From Escherichia phage BUCT632: DNA of 64,000 nucleotides. A model generated the notes under the pieces. That model did not search any database. It saw nothing but the letters and a program-made list of their open reading frames with translations, and had not been told where the DNA came from. The stretch's first letter is position 1; the number at the start of each line of letters is the position of its first letter. Position numbers and translations under genes: made by a program. Below are positions 5,978 through 62,333 of this stretch, one piece after another. The stretch lies in the sequence record PQ488502.1; one strand, 5' to 3'.

Positions 5978-8034
5978 TGATTTCGAATAATGCACCAGCC
6001 AAAATGGTCTTAAATAGTATAATGACTGGATATACAATGGCGTATGTCCAGCACTCTATATATACTGACTATGACGTTATTGGTAGATCTTTTTGGCTAA
6101 AGACAGGAGAAAGTATAGATAGACGTGATTACACCGGTATAGATACTTTCTTCGTAATGATTAATAATCTAACCCCCTCTACCTCCTATGAGATTCAGGG
6201 GGCTTTCTATGACTCAATTATTGACTCAGAGTTATTGGAAGCTAAGATTGGTATAAACTTATCTAATAAAACCACTTTTAGTACCAAGAGAAAACCCACT
6301 ATTACCTCCGCTAGATCAGAAGCTGATCCAGTAGACGTGGGTGTCGGAGCTCCTATAGTAGTTATAGAAACTACAGGAGAAGCCAGTTATTGTACTATTG
6401 AGTTAAAAAGTACTCAACCTTCAAATAGTCCATGGATAAAATATTATGTAGGTCCATTATCTCCCATTATTAGATTTGGTGGCGTACCTATTGGAGATTA
6501 TAAAGTACGCATATCTGGACAAGTTACTATGCCTGATGGTGTAACGGTAGACTCTTCTGGATATTTTGAATTTTCCAAAGTTCTTACTGTAGAGTATAAC
6601 TTTGTGCCACCTACTGCTCCTAGTAATATTACCTTCAAAGCTGCAAGAATTGCTGATGGTAAAGAACGCTACGACCTACGTGTACAATGGGACTGGGATA
6701 GAGGAGCTGGAGCAAATGTTCGAGAGTTTGTTGTTTCTTACATAGATTCAGCAGAATTTAAAAAGACTGGGTGGACTAAAGCTCAAAAAATCAACGTTGG
6801 AGCTGCACAGGCGGCAACTATTATATCCTTTCCGTGGAAAATTGAGCATAAGTTTAAGGTCTCTTCAATAGCCTGGGGTCCGGATGCCCAAGACGTAACA
6901 GATTCCGCAGTACAGACTTTTATACTGAATGAGGATACTCCTCTTGACAATAGTTTTGTTAATGAAACTGGTATTGAAGTAAACTATGCGTACATTAAGG
7001 GTAAGATTAAAGATGGTTCTACCTGGAAACAAACATTTTTAATCGATGCTGCTACCGGTGCTATTAACATAGGTCTTCTAGATGCAGAAGGAAAAGCACC
7101 AATATCTTTCGATCCTGTTAAGAAGATAATTAACGTTGATGGTAGTGTAATCACTAAAACTATAAACGCGGCTAACTTTGTAATGACTAACCTGACCGGT
7201 CAAGATAACCCGGCAATTTATACTCAAGGTAAAACTTGGGGTGATACAAAATCTGGTATCTGGATGGGAATGGATAATACTTCCGCTAAACCAAAGTTAG
7301 ATATAGGTAATGCTACTCAGTGGATACGCTATGATGGTACTACACTTCGTATTTCTAGTGGTGTTGTTATAGGAACTCCTAATGGTGACGTGGATCTTGG
7401 TACAGGTATGCAAGGTAAGCAAACGGTATTTGTTTACAAACTCGGTAAAAGCTTGCCTGCTAAACCTCTAGAACAAGATTACCCACCTCCTGGATGGTCT
7501 AAAACACCACCAAATCGTACTGATATGACCCAAAATATCTATGCTACTACTGGTACTCTAGATCCTGTTACTAATAAGTTATTAGAGGGTACTAGCTGGG
7601 CAGATGTGGTTCAATGGAGCGGTACTGAAGGTACTATAGGGCATGATGGACAACGTGGTCCTGGGATGTATTCCGTAGGTATAGCAGGTTTAGGTGGTTG
7701 GGATGATGGACAAGCTAATTCCTTCTTTCAAAGTAACTTCGGTTCCCCCCCAGTTAAATATGATGTATTAACTGAATTTAATAGTAATGCCCCCCAATCA
7801 GCATTTACAAGGCAATGGAATGGGTCTGGTTGGGTTAACCCTGCAATGGTTCTCCATGGAAACATGATTGTTAATGGGACGGTGACGGCAGATAAAATTG
7901 TAGCAGGAAATGCTTTCTTATCTCAGATCGGTGTTAACATCATTTATGATAGGAATGCTGCATTATCGGGAAACCCTGAGGCATACTACAAGATGAAGAT
8001 AGACCTAAATAGTGGGTATATCCATATAAGGTAA
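5977..8034 (+). CDS. Central straight fibre protein (pb4-like)
   Basis: About 685 aa; ATG at 5977 overlaps the pb3 stop (TAATG); Gly/Thr-rich beta-type sequence. Confidence 0.7.
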   Translation: MISNNAPAKMVLNSIMTGYTMAYVQHSIYTDYDVIGRSFWLKTGESIDRRDYTGIDTFFVMINNLTPSTSYEIQGAFYDSIIDSELLEAKIGINLSNKTTFSTKRKPTITSARSEADPVDVGVGAPIVVIETTGEASYCTIELKSTQPSNSPWIKYYVGPLSPIIRFGGVPIGDYKVRISGQVTMPDGVTVDSSGYFEFSKVLTVEYNFVPPTAPSNITFKAARIADGKERYDLRVQWDWDRGAGANVREFVVSYIDSAEFKKTGWTKAQKINVGAAQAATIISFPWKIEHKFKVSSIAWGPDAQDVTDSAVQTFILNEDTPLDNSFVNETGIEVNYAYIKGKIKDGSTWKQTFLIDAATGAINIGLLDAEGKAPISFDPVKKIINVDGSVITKTINAANFVMTNLTGQDNPAIYTQGKTWGDTKSGIWMGMDNTSAKPKLDIGNATQWIRYDGTTLRISSGVVIGTPNGDVDLGTGMQGKQTVFVYKLGKSLPAKPLEQDYPPPGWSKTPPNRTDMTQNIYATTGTLDPVTNKLLEGTSWADVVQWSGTEGTIGHDGQRGPGMYSVGIAGLGGWDDGQANSFFQSNFGSPPVKYDVLTEFNSNAPQSAFTRQWNGSGWVNPAMVLHGNMIVNGTVTADKIVAGNAFLSQIGVNIIYDRNAALSGNPEAYYKMKIDLNSGYIHIR

Positions 8035-8040
8035 TAAATA

Positions 8041-8463
8041 ATGAGTACTGAAAATAGAGTTATAGACTTAGTGATAGATGAGAAAGTACCTTATGGTCTA
8101 ATGATGCAATTCTTAGATGTTGATGATAGTACTTATCCGCATACAAATACCCCTGTTAACTTAACAGGGTATTCTCTAAGAGGTACTATAAAGACCAGTC
8201 TTGATGAGAATGCGGAAACTTTGGCATCTTTTACTACTAAAATTATTGATGCTGCTCAAGGTGCTATAGCCATAAGTTTGCCCGTAGAGGCGGTAGAGAA
8301 TATTGGTGCCAAAGCCACCAAAGAAAGAGATAAATATAATCCTCGCCAACGTTTTGCAGGATACTATGACATAATTATGACACGAGATGTCATAGGATCA
8401 GCTATTAGCTCCTTTCGTATAATGGAGGGTAAAGTATTTATCAGTGATGGGGTAACTAAATAA
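8041..8463 (+). CDS. Collar protein (p132-like), 140 aa
   Basis: 140-aa ORF immediately upstream of the tail fibre gene, same size as T5 p132. Confidence 0.65.
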
Positions 8464-10856
8464 TGGCAGTAACTACTAAAATTATTGTGCAACAAATACT
8501 GAATATAGATGATACGAAAGCTACTGCTAGTAAATTTCCTAGATACACCGTAATTCTTGGAAATTCTATTAGTTCTATTACTGCTAGTGAGTTAGTATCT
8601 TCTATAGAAGCCGCTGCTAAATCTGCTGCAGCGGCTAAAGATTCTGAAATAGCAGCTAAGACTTCAGAGCTTAATGCTAAGAACTCTGAACAGGAAGCTG
8701 CTATTTCTGCTGGAGCTTCTGAAGCTTCTGCTACTCAGTCTGCTACCTCTGCTACTCAGTCTGTCACTTCTGCTACTAAATCCGCAGAATCAGCTGCAGC
8801 TGCAAAAACCTCTGAAACCAATGCTAAGTCTAGTGAAACAAAAGCTAAAACTAGCGAAACTAACGCAAAAACTAGTGAAACAAAAGCTAAAACTAGCGAA
8901 ACTAATGCAAAAGCTAGTGAGGATAATGCAAAGGTCAGTGAGACTAATGCTGCCGCTTCTGCTGCAGCGGCAAAACTTAGTGAGGATAATGCAAAGGTCA
9001 GTGAGACTAATGCTGCCGCTTCTGCTGCGGATTCCAGTGGTTTTAGGAATGAGGCGGAAACATTCTCTACACAAGCTGCTACATCAGCTTCTGCTGCAAA
9101 AACCTCCGAAACAAAGGCTAAAACTAGCGAAACTAATGCAAAAGCTAGTGAGACTAAAGCCAAAGCTAGTGAGACTAACGCAGCTAGTTCCGCAACTTCA
9201 GCTAGTCAGTCAGTAACTACTATCCAAGGCTTAAAATCAGATGTTGAGCAACTAAAATCAGATACTCAGGCCATTAAAAACAGTGCTGTAACAGAGACAA
9301 CAGCTATAAAGGCAGATGTTGCGCAGTTAAAAACAGACACACAAGGCATTAAGAATAGCGCGATAACAGAAACTACCACGCTAAAAAACCAAGCTGCTAA
9401 TTCTGCAACTAGTGCTGCTAATTCTGCTACTGAAGCAGGAAAACAAGCTACTAGTGCTGCCAATAGTGCTAAGACTGCTAAGACTGAGGCCGACCGCTCA
9501 AAAACTGAGGCTGATAGATCAGAAGCTGCTGCTAATTCTACCCCCGACATTCAACCTCTTCCAGATGTATGGATACCGTTTAATGATTCTCTAGATATGA
9601 TTACAGGATTTTCACCTTCATATAAAAAGATTGTTATTGGTGACGATGAAATCACGATGCCTGGAGACAAGATTGTTAAATTTAAGCGAGCTTCAACTGC
9701 GACATATATTAATAAGTCTGGGGTGCTTACTAATGCTGCTATTGATGAACCTAGATTTGAAAAGGATGGTCTGCTCATTGAGGGGCAAAGAACAAACCTT
9801 CTTATAAATAGCACCAATCCTTCAAAATGGAACAAGTCATCAAATATGATCTTAGATAGATCAGGTGTAGATGATTTCGGATTCCAGTACGCAAAATTTA
9901 CATTAAAACCAGAAATGGTAGGGCAAACTTCAGCGATTAACATAGTAACCGTTTCCGGCAGTAGAGGTTTTGATGTAACAGGAAATGAAAAGTATGTAAC
10001 CATATCATGCAGGGCGCAAAGTGGGACTCCAAATTTAAGATGCCGATTACGATTTGAAAACTACGATGGATCTGCTTATACATTTTTGGGTGATGCTTAC
10101 GTAAATCTGACAGATTTATCAATTGAAAAAACTGGCGGCGCTGCAAATCGTATTACTGCAAGGGCTGTTAAAGATGAAGCAAGCAAATGGATTTTCTTTG
10201 AGGCAACAATTAAAGCGCTTGATACAGAAAATATGATCGGTGCAATGGTGCAGTATGCACCAGCAAAAGAGGGAGGGGGCACTGGTGCAGATGATTATAT
10301 TTATATTGCTACCCCTCAAGTTGAAGGCGGGGTGTGCGCTTCATCGTTTATTATTACAGAAGCGACTCCAGTAACACGGGCAAGCGATATGGTCACATTG
10401 CCAATAAAAAACAACCTTTACAATTTGCCATTTACAGTACTTGTGGAAGCTCATAAAAACTGGAGTATAACGCCAAATGCAGCGCCACGTGTTTTTGATA
10501 CCAGCGGTCATCAAACCGGAGCGGCTATTATTCTTGCTTTCGGATCTGCCGAAGGCGATAATGATGGATTCCCTTATTGCGATATAGGTAAATCAAACAG
10601 AAGGGTTTACGAAAATGCAAAACTAAAAAAGATGATCATGGGAATGAGAGTAAAGAGTGATTACAATAATTGCTGTGTAAGTAATGCCAGAATATCAAGC
10701 GAAACAAAAACGGAATGGAGATACATACAATCAACGGCTATTATAAGGATTGGAGGACAAACAAATACTGGAGAACGACATTTATTTGGCCATATCCGAA
10801 ACTTTAGAATCTGGCATAAGGAACTAACTGATAGACAAATGAAGGAGTATGTATGA
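8463..10856 (+). CDS. L-shaped tail fibre protein, proximal part (pb1-like N-terminus with a divergent C-terminal domain)
   Basis: N-terminus with Ser/Ala/Thr/Glu/Asn/Lys heptad-like repeats (TSETNAK/TSETKAK); C-terminal 400 aa globular; no C-terminal chaperone domain. Confidence 0.7.
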   Translation: MAVTTKIIVQQILNIDDTKATASKFPRYTVILGNSISSITASELVSSIEAAAKSAAAAKDSEIAAKTSELNAKNSEQEAAISAGASEASATQSATSATQSVTSATKSAESAAAAKTSETNAKSSETKAKTSETNAKTSETKAKTSETNAKASEDNAKVSETNAAASAAAAKLSEDNAKVSETNAAASAADSSGFRNEAETFSTQAATSASAAKTSETKAKTSETNAKASETKAKASETNAASSATSASQSVTTIQGLKSDVEQLKSDTQAIKNSAVTETTAIKADVAQLKTDTQGIKNSAITETTTLKNQAANSATSAANSATEAGKQATSAANSAKTAKTEADRSKTEADRSEAAANSTPDIQPLPDVWIPFNDSLDMITGFSPSYKKIVIGDDEITMPGDKIVKFKRASTATYINKSGVLTNAAIDEPRFEKDGLLIEGQRTNLLINSTNPSKWNKSSNMILDRSGVDDFGFQYAKFTLKPEMVGQTSAINIVTVSGSRGFDVTGNEKYVTISCRAQSGTPNLRCRLRFENYDGSAYTFLGDAYVNLTDLSIEKTGGAANRITARAVKDEASKWIFFEATIKALDTENMIGAMVQYAPAKEGGGTGADDYIYIATPQVEGGVCASSFIITEATPVTRASDMVTLPIKNNLYNLPFTVLVEAHKNWSITPNAAPRVFDTSGHQTGAAIILAFGSAEGDNDGFPYCDIGKSNRRVYENAKLKKMIMGMRVKSDYNNCCVSNARISSETKTEWRYIQSTAIIRIGGQTNTGERHLFGHIRNFRIWHKELTDRQMKEYV
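8916..9028 (+). repeat. Tandem direct duplication (two 50-bp copies, 63-bp period) inside the fibre rod region
   Basis: AGTGAGGATAATGCAAAGGTCAGTGAGACTAATGCTGCCGCTTCTGCTGC at 8916-8965 and again at 8979-9028. Confidence 0.85.
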
Positions 10857-14254: not shown

Positions 14255-14736
14255 TATTTAATTAAGTCCTCAACAGATGCATGATGTAGCCATGGCTCAA
14301 ATAAACCAATTACGATTTCCATGTCTTTCTTATTTAACACCATATGGGTACGACTCATTAAGTTGTCAACCATCGGGTCTGAGCTATCCAAAGCTATTAA
14401 CCACTGTCCTCTGTCTTTTTTGAATATTAATGCAGGTTTGGAGTTCATCTGCTCACCTTCACGTGAGCACTGCTGCCACCACTTCTCTAGAGTGGATTCA
14501 CCAACATTAAATAAATTACTTGATATATTATCATCTTTATACCACTTAACTTCGAAGCAGTATTTACTAATGTGTCCGCTTTGTGGTGGAAGGTAGATGT
14601 CACCCTTCAGTCCGTGGCTCTGGCCAAAAGCACCAGAGCCCGGAACACGTTCCCACTCAAGACCTGTACGATCACGTAGAATATCTCTTACCTGATATTC
14701 ACCACGTTTACCTTTTTCTCTACTATCTACGGCCAT
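14254..14736 (-). CDS. D14-like protein, function unknown
   Basis: 160-aa ORF in the conserved D15-D14-D13-D12 order. Confidence 0.5.
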   Translation of the reverse strand: MAVDSREKGKRGEYQVRDILRDRTGLEWERVPGSGAFGQSHGLKGDIYLPPQSGHISKYCFEVKWYKDDNISSNLFNVGESTLEKWWQQCSREGEQMNSKPALIFKKDRGQWLIALDSSDPMVDNLMSRTHMVLNKKDMEIVIGLFEPWLHHASVEDLIK

Positions 14737-51415: not shown

Positions 51416-51586
51416 ATGAAATCAGTTGTAATTATTGGTGTTAACACTCGCGGTATTCGTACTACGAAAACTGTTAAAACATCTAACGTGGCTGAAATTA
51501 CTACTAACCCTAAAAAGTTTGATTTCGCCAAAGTCTCGGCAGTTATGACAGAACAATCTTTTAACCAAGCGTTAGGAATGAAATAA
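51416..51586 (+). CDS. Hypothetical small protein (56 aa), below the ORF-track cutoff
   Basis: ATG after RBS GAGAGGAAG; stop overlaps the next start (TAATG). Confidence 0.45.
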   Translation: MKSVVIIGVNTRGIRTTKTVKTSNVAEITTNPKKFDFAKVSAVMTEQSFNQALGMK

Positions 51587-52029
51587 TGGAAGAGAATATT
51601 TTAGATGTTTTGCGTAGAGCTTTGCAGGATTCTAAGTTTAATGGTTCTGATAAAGAAGTCGCTAAAAGCTACCAGACCATAATCGGGGATCTTCAGCGTA
51701 TTGATAAAGATTTCATCACTTCTGAACAATTTGTGTCTTATCTCAAAGCTCAACTAAAAAGCATTAACCAGATGAAAGCTAAACTTCATGGTCGAGATCT
51801 TGATAGCTATAGCTTACAGTCTGCTCAGTATGAATACATTCTAAATAAGTGGTTGCAGGAGTATCTGCCTCCTCAGTTATCTGATACTGAGATTCGTAAA
51901 TACTTTGCAGAATTAGTTAAGCTAAACCCTGGAATTACAAAGGGTATGCTGATGAAAGCGATTAAGGAAGAATTTCCTGGGCGTTATGATGGTGGTACTG
52001 CTGCTCAGATTGCTGGCGAATTTAATTAA
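51586..52029 (+). CDS. GatB/YqeY-domain protein
   Basis: 147 aa; ...LQEYLPPQLSDTEIRKYF...KGMLMKAIKEEFPGRYDGGTAAQIAGEF matches the YqeY-type pattern. Confidence 0.55.
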   Translation: MEENILDVLRRALQDSKFNGSDKEVAKSYQTIIGDLQRIDKDFITSEQFVSYLKAQLKSINQMKAKLHGRDLDSYSLQSAQYEYILNKWLQEYLPPQLSDTEIRKYFAELVKLNPGITKGMLMKAIKEEFPGRYDGGTAAQIAGEFN

Positions 52030-52074: not shown

Positions 52075-52863
52075 AAATTAGGGAACAGCGAGCCGATTAC
52101 GCTGAGTGCAGAATCCCAACCGGAGCGCATTGAATAGAGTCGGTGGGTTAGTTGTAAAACTAGTACACAGGGGGCGGCAATCCCGGTTAGTGGCTAGAAC
52201 GTGTAAAATGAGGCGTCTGAAACCTCTCCCCTAAACTCTTCTCTAATTTATAAATAGTGGGGTGTGGAAATCACTTATGTAGTAACACTGCCGTCCTAGT
52301 ATAATTGGTATTATCAAGCCGTAACTGGTGGAAGATGTAGGTTCGAATCCTACGGTCGGTAAGAACTGGATAACTGATGCTTTTAACGTAAAAGCTTCCG
52401 AGGTTAGTTGCGCACTGCCTAAACCACGCGGTAGTTGGTTCCAGACTAACCAACCAGTCTGCTGAATAGTTTTATTACGATTTAACTATGTCCAGGCTAA
52501 AGAAGAACTTTAGAAGGTATTCTAGGATAGTGAAGTTCTTTCTCCATATCGGAGTAGTTTTTCAAGCTATCCACAAAGTGGGAAATGCTGACATGAGAGA
52601 TGTCACTAATGGTGCACAATAGCACAGGTAATTCGCGATAACTCCTGTTGAGTAGCAGCAAAAGGCGGGAAGTCATGACCCCAAGCCTAACCGAGTCCTC
52701 AATATACCGCAGGATATAACCACTAAGTCACCCTGACTTAAACTGGAAAATAATAGACGTTACCGTATTTTGTCTTGAAATACTTAATGAGTGAGACTTA
52801 TGACTCTCCCGGTATCGTCTGTATTTTTAAGAGTTTTTACGAGAGTTCTTAAAAATACTTAAA
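52075..52863 (+). ncRNA. ORF-free transcribed region with tRNA-like T-arm hairpin (candidate structured stable RNA or precursor leader)
   Basis: About 790 nt without an ORF of 60 aa or more, downstream of a strong promoter; canonical T-arm GTAGG-TTCGAAT-CCTAC at 52337-52353 without a foldable cloverleaf. Confidence 0.3.
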
Positions 52864-56573: not shown

Positions 56574-56651
56574 GGTTCTCAAGCTCATATGGTATGAGCA
56601 CCCGGCTCATAACCGGAAGGTACGTAGGTTCGAATCCTCGGGGAGCCACCA
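56574..56651 (+). tRNA. tRNA with CAT anticodon (Met or Ile2), weak T-stem
   Basis: Acceptor GGTTCTC/GGGAGCC, D-arm GCTC...GAGC, anticodon loop CTCATAA, TTCGAAT T-loop with only 3 T-stem pairs, CCA. Confidence 0.45.
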
Positions 56652-56865: not shown

Positions 56866-56942
56866 GGGGGTGTAATCGAATTGGCATAGGTACTGGACTT
56901 AAAATTCAGGTTTTGTGGGTTCGAATCCCACCACCCCTACCA
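56866..56942 (+). tRNA. tRNA-Leu (anticodon TAA) with short variable loop
   Basis: Acceptor GGGGGTG/CACCCCT, Leu-type D-loop GAATTGGCATA, anticodon loop CTTAAAA, 5-nt variable loop, T-arm GTGGG-TTCGAAT-CCCAC, A73, CCA. Confidence 0.55.
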
Positions 56943-59185: not shown

Positions 59186-59187
59186 AT

Positions 59188-59327
59188 TTGCTGAAAGAAT
59201 TGTTAAATCAATTCAGGCACGCGTAGGAACACTGTCTCCGTAATTGAAAGATGGGGCACGGTTTGGAGAGGTATGCCGCTACACGCTACGGTGCTAACTC
59301 CGTCTAGGTGAAAATCCTAGTCAGCAA
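59188..59327 (+). ncRNA. tRNA-like structured RNA candidate (about 140 nt)
   Basis: Perfect 7-bp terminal pairing TTGCTGA (59188-59194) with TCAGCAA (59321-59327) next to a T-arm-like hairpin CTAGG-TGAAAAT-CCTAG; no canonical cloverleaf. Confidence 0.3.
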
Positions 59328-59337
59328 TGTAAATTTA

Positions 59338-59420
59338 GGGTCGTTAGCCAAGCGGTTTGGCGGCGGATTGTTAATCCGTGTCGAAAGACAACGTAGGTTC
59401 GAATCCTACACGGCCCGCCA
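59338..59420 (+). tRNA. tRNA-Asn-like (anticodon GTT) with unusually long variable arm
   Basis: Acceptor GGGTCGT/ACGGCCC, 3-bp D-stem, anticodon arm GCGGA-TTGTTAA-TCCGT, 13-nt variable region, T-arm GTAGG-TTCGAAT-CCTAC, CCA. Confidence 0.55.
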
Positions 59421-59522
59421 AATTCTGTGTAGAGTTAAGTAAACCGGTAGCCAATCAGCTATCATTGCTGACATCGAATTCAGCCACAGATACCATTTTC
59501 ATTAATAACTGAGGAAACAAGC

Positions 59523-60868: not shown

Positions 60869-60946
60869 TGCGGGTTAGATCTCTGGTAGAGATCGCTAGT
60901 CTCATAAGCTAGAAAGAGGTAGGTTCGATTCCTGCACCCGCTTCCA
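60869..60946 (+). tRNA. tRNA with CAT anticodon (Met or Ile2), U1-U72 mismatch
   Basis: Acceptor TGCGGGT/ACCCGCT, D-stem GATC/GATC, anticodon arm CTAGT-CTCATAA-GCTAG, T-arm GTAGG-TTCGATT-CCTGC, CCA. Confidence 0.6.
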
Positions 60947-61499: not shown

Positions 61500-61578
61500 G
61501 GGGAATGGGTCTGCATGGAGTGGACACCTCGCTTGCACCGAGGACATCAGAACGGTTCGATTCCGTTATTCTCCACCA
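61500..61578 (+). tRNA. tRNA-Ala (anticodon TGC) with G3-U70 pair
   Basis: Acceptor GGGGAAT/ATTCTCC with G3-U70 wobble, D-stem GTCT/GGAC, anticodon arm CCTCG-CTTGCAC-CGAGG, T-arm AACGG-TTCGATT-CCGTT, CCA. Confidence 0.65.
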
Positions 61579-61583
61579 AATAC

Positions 61584-61660
61584 GCGTGATTGATGGAATT
61601 GGCATACATACCGTCCTTAGAAGTCGGGTTTTGAGGGTTCGAATCCCTTGTCACGCACCA
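61584..61660 (+). tRNA. tRNA-Leu (anticodon TAG) with short variable loop
   Basis: Acceptor GCGTGAT/GTCACGC, Leu-type D-loop GAATTGGCATA, anticodon loop CTTAGAA, 5-nt variable loop, T-arm GAGGG-TTCGAAT-CCCTT, A73, CCA. Confidence 0.55.
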
Positions 61661-62243: not shown

Positions 62244-62333
62244 AGAAGATAGGACGTAGTGGTATGTAACTGGTCTTGAAAACCAGCCCGCTGTAGTGAT
62301 ACGGTGATGGTTCGACTCCATTATCTTCTGCCA
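62244..62333 (+). tRNA. tRNA-Ser (anticodon TGA), type II
   Basis: 90 nt; acceptor AGAAGAT/ATCTTCT, anticodon arm CTGGT-CTTGAAA-ACCAG, long variable arm, T-arm GATGG-TTCGACT-CCATT, CCA. Confidence 0.7.

Follow-up and report, generated by a model that had tools for sequence, protein, structure and literature searches.

A phage tRNA-Asn with an extra hairpin arm in Escherichia phage BUCT632 and its long-arm relatives

According to the textbook, long variable arms in bacteria are limited to the tRNAs for leucine, serine, tyrosine and selenocysteine. This paper concerns a tRNA gene that does not follow this division. The gene lies at 59338-59420 on the plus strand of a 64,000-nucleotide stretch of Escherichia phage BUCT632 (PQ488502.1), referred to here as the window, and it is a genuine phage tRNA-Asn with an extra hairpin arm. 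Its closest described counterparts each share part of its features. The E. coli tRNA-Asn (asnT/U/V/W) has the same GUU anticodon, G73, A37/A38 and anticodon arm (GCGGA-YUGUUAA-UCCGU) and presumably uses the same synthetase and codons, but it is a type I tRNA with a 5-nt variable loop, a 4-bp D-stem with C13-G22 and a U1-A72 pair, whereas in the window tRNA there is a 13-nt arm, the first pair is G1-C72, and the acceptor, D and T arms all differ. The class II tRNA-Tyr(GUA) resembles the long-arm tRNA-Asn in its variable region of ~13-15 nt with a 3-4-bp stem, 0-1 nt on the 5' side and 3-4 nt on the 3' side and, for most members, in a class II-type D-arm. The anticodons are one base apart, and the long-arm tRNA-Asn has U36 in place of A36 and G73 in place of A73, both of which are tyrosine identity positions. 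Finally, nematode nev-tRNAs and bacterial allo-tRNAs combine a long arm with the anticodon of a type I isoacceptor. These tRNAs keep leucine or serine identity and are (mis)charged accordingly, whereas in the phage family the asparagine identity set is complete and the geometry of the arm does not suit SerRS.

The remaining comparison is with phage T5. A recent study by Belukhina et al. (2025, PMC12409363) determined that the T5 tRNAs Lys, Thr and Asn together neutralise the PARIS defence system, whose nuclease AriB cleaves E. coli tRNA-Asn(GUU) between positions 40 and 41. Recognition by AriB extends to distal features including the D-loop (U16), and in an AlphaFold 3 model the AriB dimer spans C40-A41 and the D-loop nucleotides U16-U17 (PMC12409363). 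The resistance of T5 tRNA-Lys to AriB was attributed to the substitutions U39A, A41C and U16C together with undefined distal contacts, and it was raised that overexpressed viral tRNAs possibly inhibit AriB by competition (PMC12409363). The variable arm is not mentioned in that study (the word "variable" is absent), and the tRNA-Asn used there was the type I allele of T5. This T5 tRNA-Asn (T5t17) occupies the syntenic slot and shares the anticodon, G73 and the encoded CCA with the window tRNA, but it is a type I tRNA with a remodelled anticodon stem whereas the window copy has a host-like stem and an arm, and the experiments concern the T5 allele only. T5 tRNA-Lys(UUU) is likewise a defence-targeted isoacceptor from the same cluster, and the proposed logic of a tRNA that can be charged but is a poor nuclease substrate may apply to both. 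Its resistance results from point substitutions, whereas the difference in the window tRNA-Asn is architectural and any resistance is hypothetical.

ARAGORN found 20 tRNA genes in the window, and tRNA-Asn(gtt) was placed at exactly 59338-59420 (+) with a length of 83 nt and the anticodon at position 33. In a local search the Rfam tRNA model RF00005 matched 59338-59417 over model positions 1-71 of 71 with 58.4 bits (gathering score 29; E ~1e-12). Its alignment gives the anticodon loop UUGUUAA and treats 10 nt of the variable region as an insertion. The same cloverleaf, with a fifth hairpin added to it, was obtained from an unconstrained minimum free energy (MFE) fold (-33.9 kcal/mol, z = -3.1). 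An earlier note on this DNA had read the gene by hand as an 83-nt tRNA with the anticodon loop TTGTTAA (GTT, Asn) and a 13-nt variable region, and the programs return the same length, anticodon and variable region. The note had also allowed for a misfold in its hand alignment. This reading is refuted because three independent methods yield identical arms and anticodon; a type I fold or a different anticodon for 59338-59420 was offered by none of ARAGORN, RF00005 and the MFE fold.

The gene comprises an 80-nt tRNA body and an encoded 3' CCA. From the 5' end it consists of the acceptor strand GGGUCGU (59338..59344, with G1-C72, G2-C71 and a U4.G69 wobble in the ARAGORN drawing), a UA linker, the D-arm GCCA-AGCGGUU-UGGC (59347..59361, with three G-C pairs, A13-U22, A14, G15, G18 and G19 in all three folds), a single G and the anticodon arm GCGGA-UUGUUAA-UCCGU (59363..59379), which can be read directly. 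The anticodon GUU at 59370..59372 reads AAC and AAU. The 13-nt variable arm GUCGAAAGACAAC follows at 59380..59392 and is supported by the MFE fold, helix covariation, geometry and covariation of 15:48. In the MFE fold its stem GUC/GAC (59380-82 and 59387-89) is closed by the GNRA loop GAAA (59383-86) and followed by an unpaired AAC tail (59390-92), the last C of which is position 48 and forms the Levitt pair with G15. The T-arm GUAGG-UUCGAAU-CCUAC (59393..59409; folds and covariation), the 3' acceptor strand ACGGCCC (59410..59416; ARAGORN drawing), the discriminator G73 (59417) and the CCA (59418..59420) complete the gene, the last two again by direct reading. The core nucleotides U8, A14 and G18G19 and the T-loop UUCGAAU are all in place, with G15-C48 as a tertiary pair. 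The variable region thus exceeds 10 nt and folds as a stem-loop, as in class II tRNAs, and differs from the 4-5-nt variable loop of type I, but the anticodon is that of asparagine and not of leucine, serine or tyrosine, the class II isotypes in bacteria, or of selenocysteine. The 3-bp D-stem described in the earlier note does not necessarily hold for the window copy, in which a 4-bp stem (GCCA/UGGC) is drawn by ARAGORN, RF00005 and the MFE fold because positions 13:22 are A-U, and it does hold for most relatives. The usual class II state is a 3-bp D-stem with an unpaired 13:22, typically G13.A22.

The gene belongs to a large family. The window is DNA of a T5-like phage: over the 701 bp around the gene, identity is 100% with Escherichia phage Stokescottia and 98-99% with many Tequintavirus and Epseptimavirus genomes, in which the gene is annotated as tRNA-Asn. 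With the 83-nt gene as query at lower stringency, 637 phage records were matched, ~270 of them at 95% identity or more. Full-length tRNA-Asn genes of 83-87 nt are also present in Novosibvirus and Priunavirus (other Demerecviridae), in 166-kb Klebsiella myoviruses, in Marfavirus and Phapecoctavirus and in phiKZ-like jumbo Pseudomonas phages. Viral contigs were scanned with a pattern consisting of the Asn anticodon arm and then a long gap before the T-loop, and at least 120 contigs matched. Pooling of the scans gave a sample of 126 distinct long-arm and 109 distinct short tRNA-Asn genes. The variable region of the 126 long-arm genes is 11-24 nt (mode 15), and CCA is encoded in 60% of them. The arm stem varies among relatives by paired substitutions (GUC/GAC, GUUC/GAAC, GUUC/GGAC, AUCC/GGAU, GUCA/UGAC and GGC/GCC), and its loop is mostly GNRA. 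The suggestion in the earlier note of a real but unusual isoacceptor is therefore well founded, since conservation of the gene extends over hundreds of phage records and the arm is kept by compensatory changes. The acceptor stem GGGUCGU/ACGGCCC (59338-59344/59410-59416) is identical in the long-arm tRNA-Asn of T5-like, 166-kb Klebsiella and Marfavirus phages (loci L003, L004, L005, L051 and L064), and a common acceptor stem across unrelated groups of enterobacterial phages suggests either horizontal transfer between phages or a shared host constraint. The gene itself is already known as a routinely annotated tRNA-Asn. For its class II-like architecture, for the family and for its restriction to phages we found no description in the full-text literature, in which subscription journals are thinly covered, so an older account is possible.

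Covariation within the arm was examined in an alignment of 40 distinct sequences from the anticodon arm to the T-arm, which has no gaps except in the window copy and was not fitted to structure. The three inner pairs of the arm helix are formed in 97-100% of the sequences; every one of them is represented by 3-5 pair types, and both partners have changed in 10-26 sequences. Overall the arm is paired in 96% of cases and this value drops to 31-42% when the partners are slid against each other; the observed covariation was matched by no shuffle. Covariation is likewise present in all other helices. The core of the tRNA also departs from that of the short tRNA-Asn. Positions 13:22 can pair in 33% of the long-arm tRNA-Asn as compared with 82% of the short tRNA-Asn and 4% of tRNA-Leu. 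They are unpairable in the other 67%, and G13.A22 occurs in 47%. When the nearest neighbours of the D-arm were determined for the 126 long-arm genes, Ser, Tyr and Leu tRNAs made up 39% of the best matches against a background of 21% (Ser 26, Tyr 15, Leu 8), and short tRNA-Asn only 2 of 126. The tertiary pair 15:48 covaries as well, with 34 G-C and 32 A-U combinations against 16 mixed ones, the window copy being G15-C48. Taken together, these substitution patterns indicate that the extra arm is a selected structure within a class II-type core.

The arm has a characteristic geometry with 0-1 nt on the 5' side, 3-4 bp, a 4-nt loop and 3-4 nt on the 3' side. This is like the arm of phage tRNA-Tyr and unlike that of tRNA-Ser (4-7 bp, 1 nt on the 3' side) or tRNA-Leu (1-2 nt on the 3' side). 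An ancient origin from a class II tRNA with a tyrosine-like arm geometry is possible on these comparisons. Descent specifically from tRNA-Tyr was considered and not adopted; the arm geometry fits, but the D-arm neighbours are spread over Ser, Tyr and Leu and the loop types differ, GNRA loops being found in 58% of the long-arm tRNA-Asn and in 0% of tRNA-Tyr. The earlier note had also proposed a tRNA whose identity was altered by an anticodon mutation. As a recent event this does not hold, as GUU, G73 and an Asn-type anticodon arm are fixed across the 126 members, and only the possible ancient class II origin is left of the proposal.

Asparaginyl-tRNA synthetase (AsnRS) of E. coli has its determinants in the anticodon and in G73, which also acts as an antideterminant against LeuRS and TyrRS, and U1-A72 is needed for amidation by GatCAB (PMC9976931). 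The window copy carries both AsnRS determinants, G34 U35 U36 (59370-59372) and G73 (59417), and in the family G73 is found in 123 of 126 and A37 and A38 in 126 of 126 genes. With G73 and GUU it lacks the A73 and GUA of tRNA-Tyr, and its arm with a 3-bp stem and a 3-nt 3' tail is not that of tRNA-Ser, which has a 4-7-bp stem and ~1 unpaired 3' nucleotide. The anticodon arm is that of E. coli tRNA-Asn apart from C32U, the host sequence having been confirmed against 5,425 E. coli genomes. U1-A72 occurs in 71% of the family including the phiKZ-like copies, and the copies of enterobacterial phages, the window copy among them, have G1-C72. Asn-tRNA is made by the transamidation route in Pseudomonas, and the enterobacterial phage hosts possess AsnRS, so that U1-A72 is dispensable there. 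The window tRNA is taken as an asparagine tRNA because these identity elements are present and because the arm, judged by its geometry, has neither the length nor the orientation that the serine system requires. Charging with asparagine by the host AsnRS is what we infer. The demand for such a tRNA would be considerable, with AAC and AAU (mostly AAU) together accounting for 54 per 1000 codons in the long open reading frames (ORFs) of the window. Asparagine codons in E. coli amount to ~39 per 1000.

The comparison with T5 proposed in the earlier note gave an unexpected result, since T5 itself holds a different, type I tRNA-Asn at the same locus. In T5 this slot is enclosed by tRNA-Cys and tRNA-Asp and shares its 3' flank with the window, and it contains a 78-nt type I gene at 7953-8030 (-) (NC_005859, locus L290). 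Its anticodon stem is remodelled to GCAUC/GUUGA, giving UAAGU|U at the AriB site. The 5' end of the gene is overlapped by the coding sequence 8007-8525 (-), T5.069. This ORF contains a T5orf172/MUG113 domain, and its annotation in relatives is that of a (putative) GIY-YIG or homing endonuclease. The counterpart of this site in the window is a 152-nt spacer only (59186-59337). At 95% identity or more, ~130 phage records contain the T5-type allele and ~270 the long-arm allele. This arrangement suggests that alleles at the tRNA-Asn locus have been replaced by homing. A homologue of T5 "rna3", a putative tRNA-like RNA, lies at 59423-59495, 2 nt after the CCA of tRNA-Asn. Its fold comprises two internal hairpins and a terminal stem of 6 bp (MFE -17.9 kcal/mol, z = -3.1), its 3' end is ACCA, and it is conserved beside both tRNA-Asn alleles.

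Two phages used by Belukhina et al. bear on the long-arm allele. Bas33 was rescued from PARIS by T5 tRNA-Lys alone, and Bas34 needed T5 tRNA-Asn "despite" encoding a tRNA-Asn (PMC12409363). We found that Bas33 (HildyBeyeler) has an intact long-arm tRNA-Asn of 86 nt with an AUCC/GGAU stem. The annotated tRNA-Asn of Bas34 (SelmaRatti, MZ501103, locus L293) at 14598-14681 is an Asn/Met hybrid, in which the long-arm gene up to the T-loop is joined to the 3' end and downstream flank of a tRNA-Met (homologue at 60869-60946 of the window) by a deletion of ~1.5 kb between similar T-arms. The acceptor strands of the hybrid, GGGUCGU and ACCCGCU, are unable to pair, and ARAGORN does not call it. The broken gene probably explains why Bas34 needs T5 tRNA-Asn under PARIS. 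As an experimental test of the long-arm allele Bas34 was rejected, its copy being the hybrid; it is informative only as a natural null because the acceptor stem is broken. The contrast between Bas33 and Bas34 is consistent with an intact long-arm tRNA that is functional in the presence of PARIS, and it falls short of proof since T4 and T7 do without a tRNA-Asn.

The distribution of the long-arm tRNA-Asn was determined with patterns that fix parts of the anticodon arm and the T-loop. In a less biased viral scan, in which only ACUGUUAAU and the T-loop were fixed and the variable length was free, 12 of the 120 loci listed had long arms (10%). Of the new loci inside tRNA arrays, 10 of 78 had long arms (13%), or ~17% with recurring loci included, and none of 19 solitary viral tRNA-Asn genes had a long arm, many of these 19 probably being host genes at prophage ends. 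The long-only pattern matched 43 places in 185,579 bacterial and archaeal species (one genome each), of which ~20 are real long-arm tRNA-Asn. About half of the 43 were discarded as non-tRNA sequences, as short tRNA-Asn with a chance downstream GGTTC or, in one case, as a tandem duplication. Eleven of the ~20 lie within arrays of 7-36 tRNA genes (e.g., Micromonospora, Verrucosispora and several contigs of metagenome-assembled genomes, MAGs) and the others are solitary, mostly on short MAG contigs. A blastn search of the gene against 5,426 E. coli genomes gave no match, and a recent host origin of the window tRNA-Asn was rejected on this result. The long-arm tRNA-Asn thus appears to be essentially a property of phages and tRNA arrays, because it is near-absent from cellular genomes outside arrays. 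The dense cellular arrays of Verrucosispora/Micromonospora (loci L249, L251, L257 and L282), of a Methyloprofundus MAG (L284) and of two further loci (L259 and L288) have 15-36 tRNA genes per 8 kb, each with a long-arm tRNA-Asn, and some dense bacterial arrays hold a normal tRNA-Asn beside the long-arm one.

Class II-like forms of other isotypes were also present in the fetched viral loci, namely 14 of 28 tRNA-Ile(UAU), 10 of 97 tRNA-Thr(UGU) and a few Cys, Trp, Met, Glu and Lys. In the class II-like tRNA-Thr(UGU), found for example in HildyBeyeler/Bas33 (L294) at 8775-8861 and in L224, L052, L152 and others, the variable region is 15 nt long, with a GUAA loop on a stem of 3 bp and a tail of 4 nt, and G13.A22 is present; tRNA-Thr(UGU) is a target of both AriB and OLD. 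A few Lys(UUU), Trp, Cys, Glu, Met and Ile(GAU) genes have the form as well. The 14 distinct long tRNA-Ile(UAU) genes constitute a separate subfamily of 90-96 nt with a 19-26-nt variable region and a conserved CAGAT(T/A)A loop motif (loci L021, L024, L025, L027, L028, L048, L096, L112, L149, L232, L237 and L259).

We consider it likely that the gene encodes a functional, asparagine-specific phage tRNA with a selected extra arm and a class II-type body. The tRNA would be transcribed and processed together with the T5-like tRNA cluster and would be charged by the host AsnRS through the GUU anticodon and G73, and the charged tRNA would decode AAC and AAU, which are abundant in the AT-rich phage. 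The arm, the Levitt pair and, in most relatives, the 3-bp D-stem with G13.A22 are integral to the class II-type core and set the body apart from that of host tRNA-Asn, while the anticodon arm is identical to that of the host except for C32U. The arm branches off at nucleotides 44-48, on the side at which D-arm and anticodon stem join, and the AriB cut site is 3-4 nt away. In the complex of TyrRS with tRNA-Tyr, a protein domain is located in the cleft between the arm and the anticodon stem. With the arm near the cut site and the AriB dimer spanning C40-A41 and the D-loop, the class II body may obstruct a nuclease of this type, and AsnRS and the modification enzymes would still meet a host-like anticodon arm. 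The window tRNA-Asn is the same isoacceptor as the host tRNA that AriB cleaves. The likeliest benefit of the arm, proposed only tentatively, is a supply of asparagine decoding that survives host tRNA-directed defence nucleases such as PARIS AriB, and we place this rationale roughly level with the structural-legacy alternative discussed below. Somewhat more doubtful is the broader proposal that the extra arm is an anti-defence device, in which phages shift type I isoacceptors onto a class II-type body and the arm and a remodelled D-loop sterically exclude nucleases that read the body; the isotypes so shifted would be Asn most often and also Thr(UGU), Lys, Trp, Cys and others.

Several points weigh against these proposals. 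Expression, charging and ribosomal use of the long-arm allele are deduced from sequence, and in the published experiments the type I allele of T5 was used. AsnRS belongs to the class IIb synthetases, which are said to approach their tRNAs from the side of the variable loop, and its tolerance of the long arm is for this reason an assumption. The frequencies given above are valid only for the subset of genes that the census patterns capture. With respect to defence, the AriB site of the window copy, U36AAUC|C41, is the host sequence, unlike those of T5 tRNA-Lys and tRNA-Asn, and the long-arm fraction per isotype tracks the AriB target list only loosely, with partial overlap. Short tRNA-Asn with a host-like anticodon arm also exist in other lytic enterobacterial phages. 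A rule that a phage tRNA-Asn has either a mutated anticodon stem or an extra arm was considered; it fits T5 and the window and fails generally because of these short genes. Finally, T4 and T7 escape PARIS without any tRNA-Asn (PMC12409363).

The arm may instead be a structural legacy. A class II tRNA with a Tyr-like arm would have switched identity long ago (A36U, GUA to GUU; A73G) and retained an arm without special function because the class II core misfolds without it, and the tRNA would merely supplement decoding for an AT-rich, Asn-rich phage. This is a possibility to be held tentatively. It is favored by the arm geometry, which fits phage tRNA-Tyr and not Ser or Leu, by a D-arm that is class II-like and unlike that of short tRNA-Asn, by the single substitution that separates GUA from GUU, and by the frequent location of tRNA-Tyr next to tRNA-Asn in these arrays. 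The high demand for asparagine codons and the fact that other phages are served by a short tRNA-Asn agree with it as well. However, the D-arm similarity is not specific to Tyr (Ser 26, Tyr 15, Leu 8), the GNRA loops that close 58% of the long-arm Asn arms are found in 0% of tRNA-Tyr, and tRNAs for Thr, Lys, Trp, Cys, Glu and Met have been re-scaffolded likewise, which suggests a recurrent selected process and not one accident. The near-exclusive distribution in phages and mobile elements also calls for a phage-specific advantage. A non-translational role appears unlikely. The tRNA could act as a decoy or competitive inhibitor of tRNA-directed nucleases or host factors, the arm making the complex non-productive; competition was raised for AriB by Belukhina et al. 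(PMC12409363), and a host-identical anticodon arm would make good bait. For a decoy, however, the conserved G73, 7-bp acceptor stem, CCA, T-loop, A37 and 15:48 pair would all be superfluous, as would a 1:72 pair that tracks the Asn-tRNA pathway of the host.

It is highly improbable that the tRNA is mischarged or recodes, with the arm, G73, G2-C71 and C11-G24 recruiting SerRS or another synthetase such that Ser, Tyr or Leu is inserted at asparagine codons. The window copy does have G73, G2-C71 and C11-G24, which together with a long arm are reportedly identity elements of E. coli tRNA-Ser (work attributed to Normanly, Himeno and Asahara), and the nev-tRNAs and allo-tRNAs are precedents for mischarged class II tRNAs with unexpected anticodons. 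But the arm has 3-4 bp and 3-4 unpaired 3' nucleotides as compared with 4-7 bp and 1 nucleotide in phage tRNA-Ser, both AsnRS determinants are kept in the long-arm family, and with asparagine at 5.4% of codons a proteome-wide substitution would be very costly for a lytic phage. G73 additionally blocks TyrRS and LeuRS (PMC9976931). That the gene is a degenerate tRNA, a pseudogene or a chance cloverleaf can practically be dismissed; only its atypical length speaks for this, against a score of 58.4 bits on RF00005 with which ARAGORN and the MFE fold agree, ~270 phage records at 95% identity or more and covariation in all helices.

Several other tRNAs of the window phage are atypical as well, as ARAGORN and Rfam disagree on them. 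The Rfam model reported tRNAs at 52290-52361 and 56574-56648 that ARAGORN missed, and the ARAGORN calls tRNA-Ala(UGC) at 61500-61578 and tRNA-Ser(UGA) at 62244-62333 fall below the Rfam gathering score. The two tRNA-Leu genes, with anticodons UAA and UAG (56866-56942 and 61584-61660), show the reverse anomaly of the tRNA-Asn and are type I-like, because each has only 77 nt with a short variable loop. The tRNA-Leu(UAG) of T5 has 85 nt. Among 200 distinct tRNA-Leu genes of the fetched viral loci, 85 (~42%) have a variable region of less than 10 nt. Upstream of the tRNA cluster, a 147-aa ORF at 51586-52029 (+) has a weak match to YqeY (GatB tail-like, tRNA-binding; 25.4 bits, cutoff 27) and appears to match T5.081, which is annotated as "tRNA amidotransferase". 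A link between this YqeY-like protein and the long-arm tRNA was considered and rejected, as the match is below the cutoff and T5, whose tRNA-Asn allele is type I, carries the gene too.

The annotation of the gene as tRNA-Asn is correct, but isotype-specific models may flag such genes as inconsistent. In its predicted function the window tRNA is a tRNA-Asn and in its build a class II tRNA, and it departs from each of the two textbook categories in one defining feature. In the long-arm family a full asparagine identity set is combined with a class II-type body that appears to have been selected across many unrelated phage lineages and is nearly absent from cells. The family provides a natural test of the tolerance of AsnRS, EF-Tu and the ribosome for a class II body, and natural alleles for comparison are available in the BASEL collection (Bas31 and T5 versus Bas32, which is Stokescottia, and Bas33, with Bas34 as a natural knockout). 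It is also a candidate for a structural escape from tRNA-cutting immunity such as PARIS. If the anti-defence role of the arm is true, phages would evade immunity through the architecture of a tRNA, by a route different from the point mutations of T5 tRNA-Lys, and the division of tRNAs into class I and class II would not be fixed by isotype.

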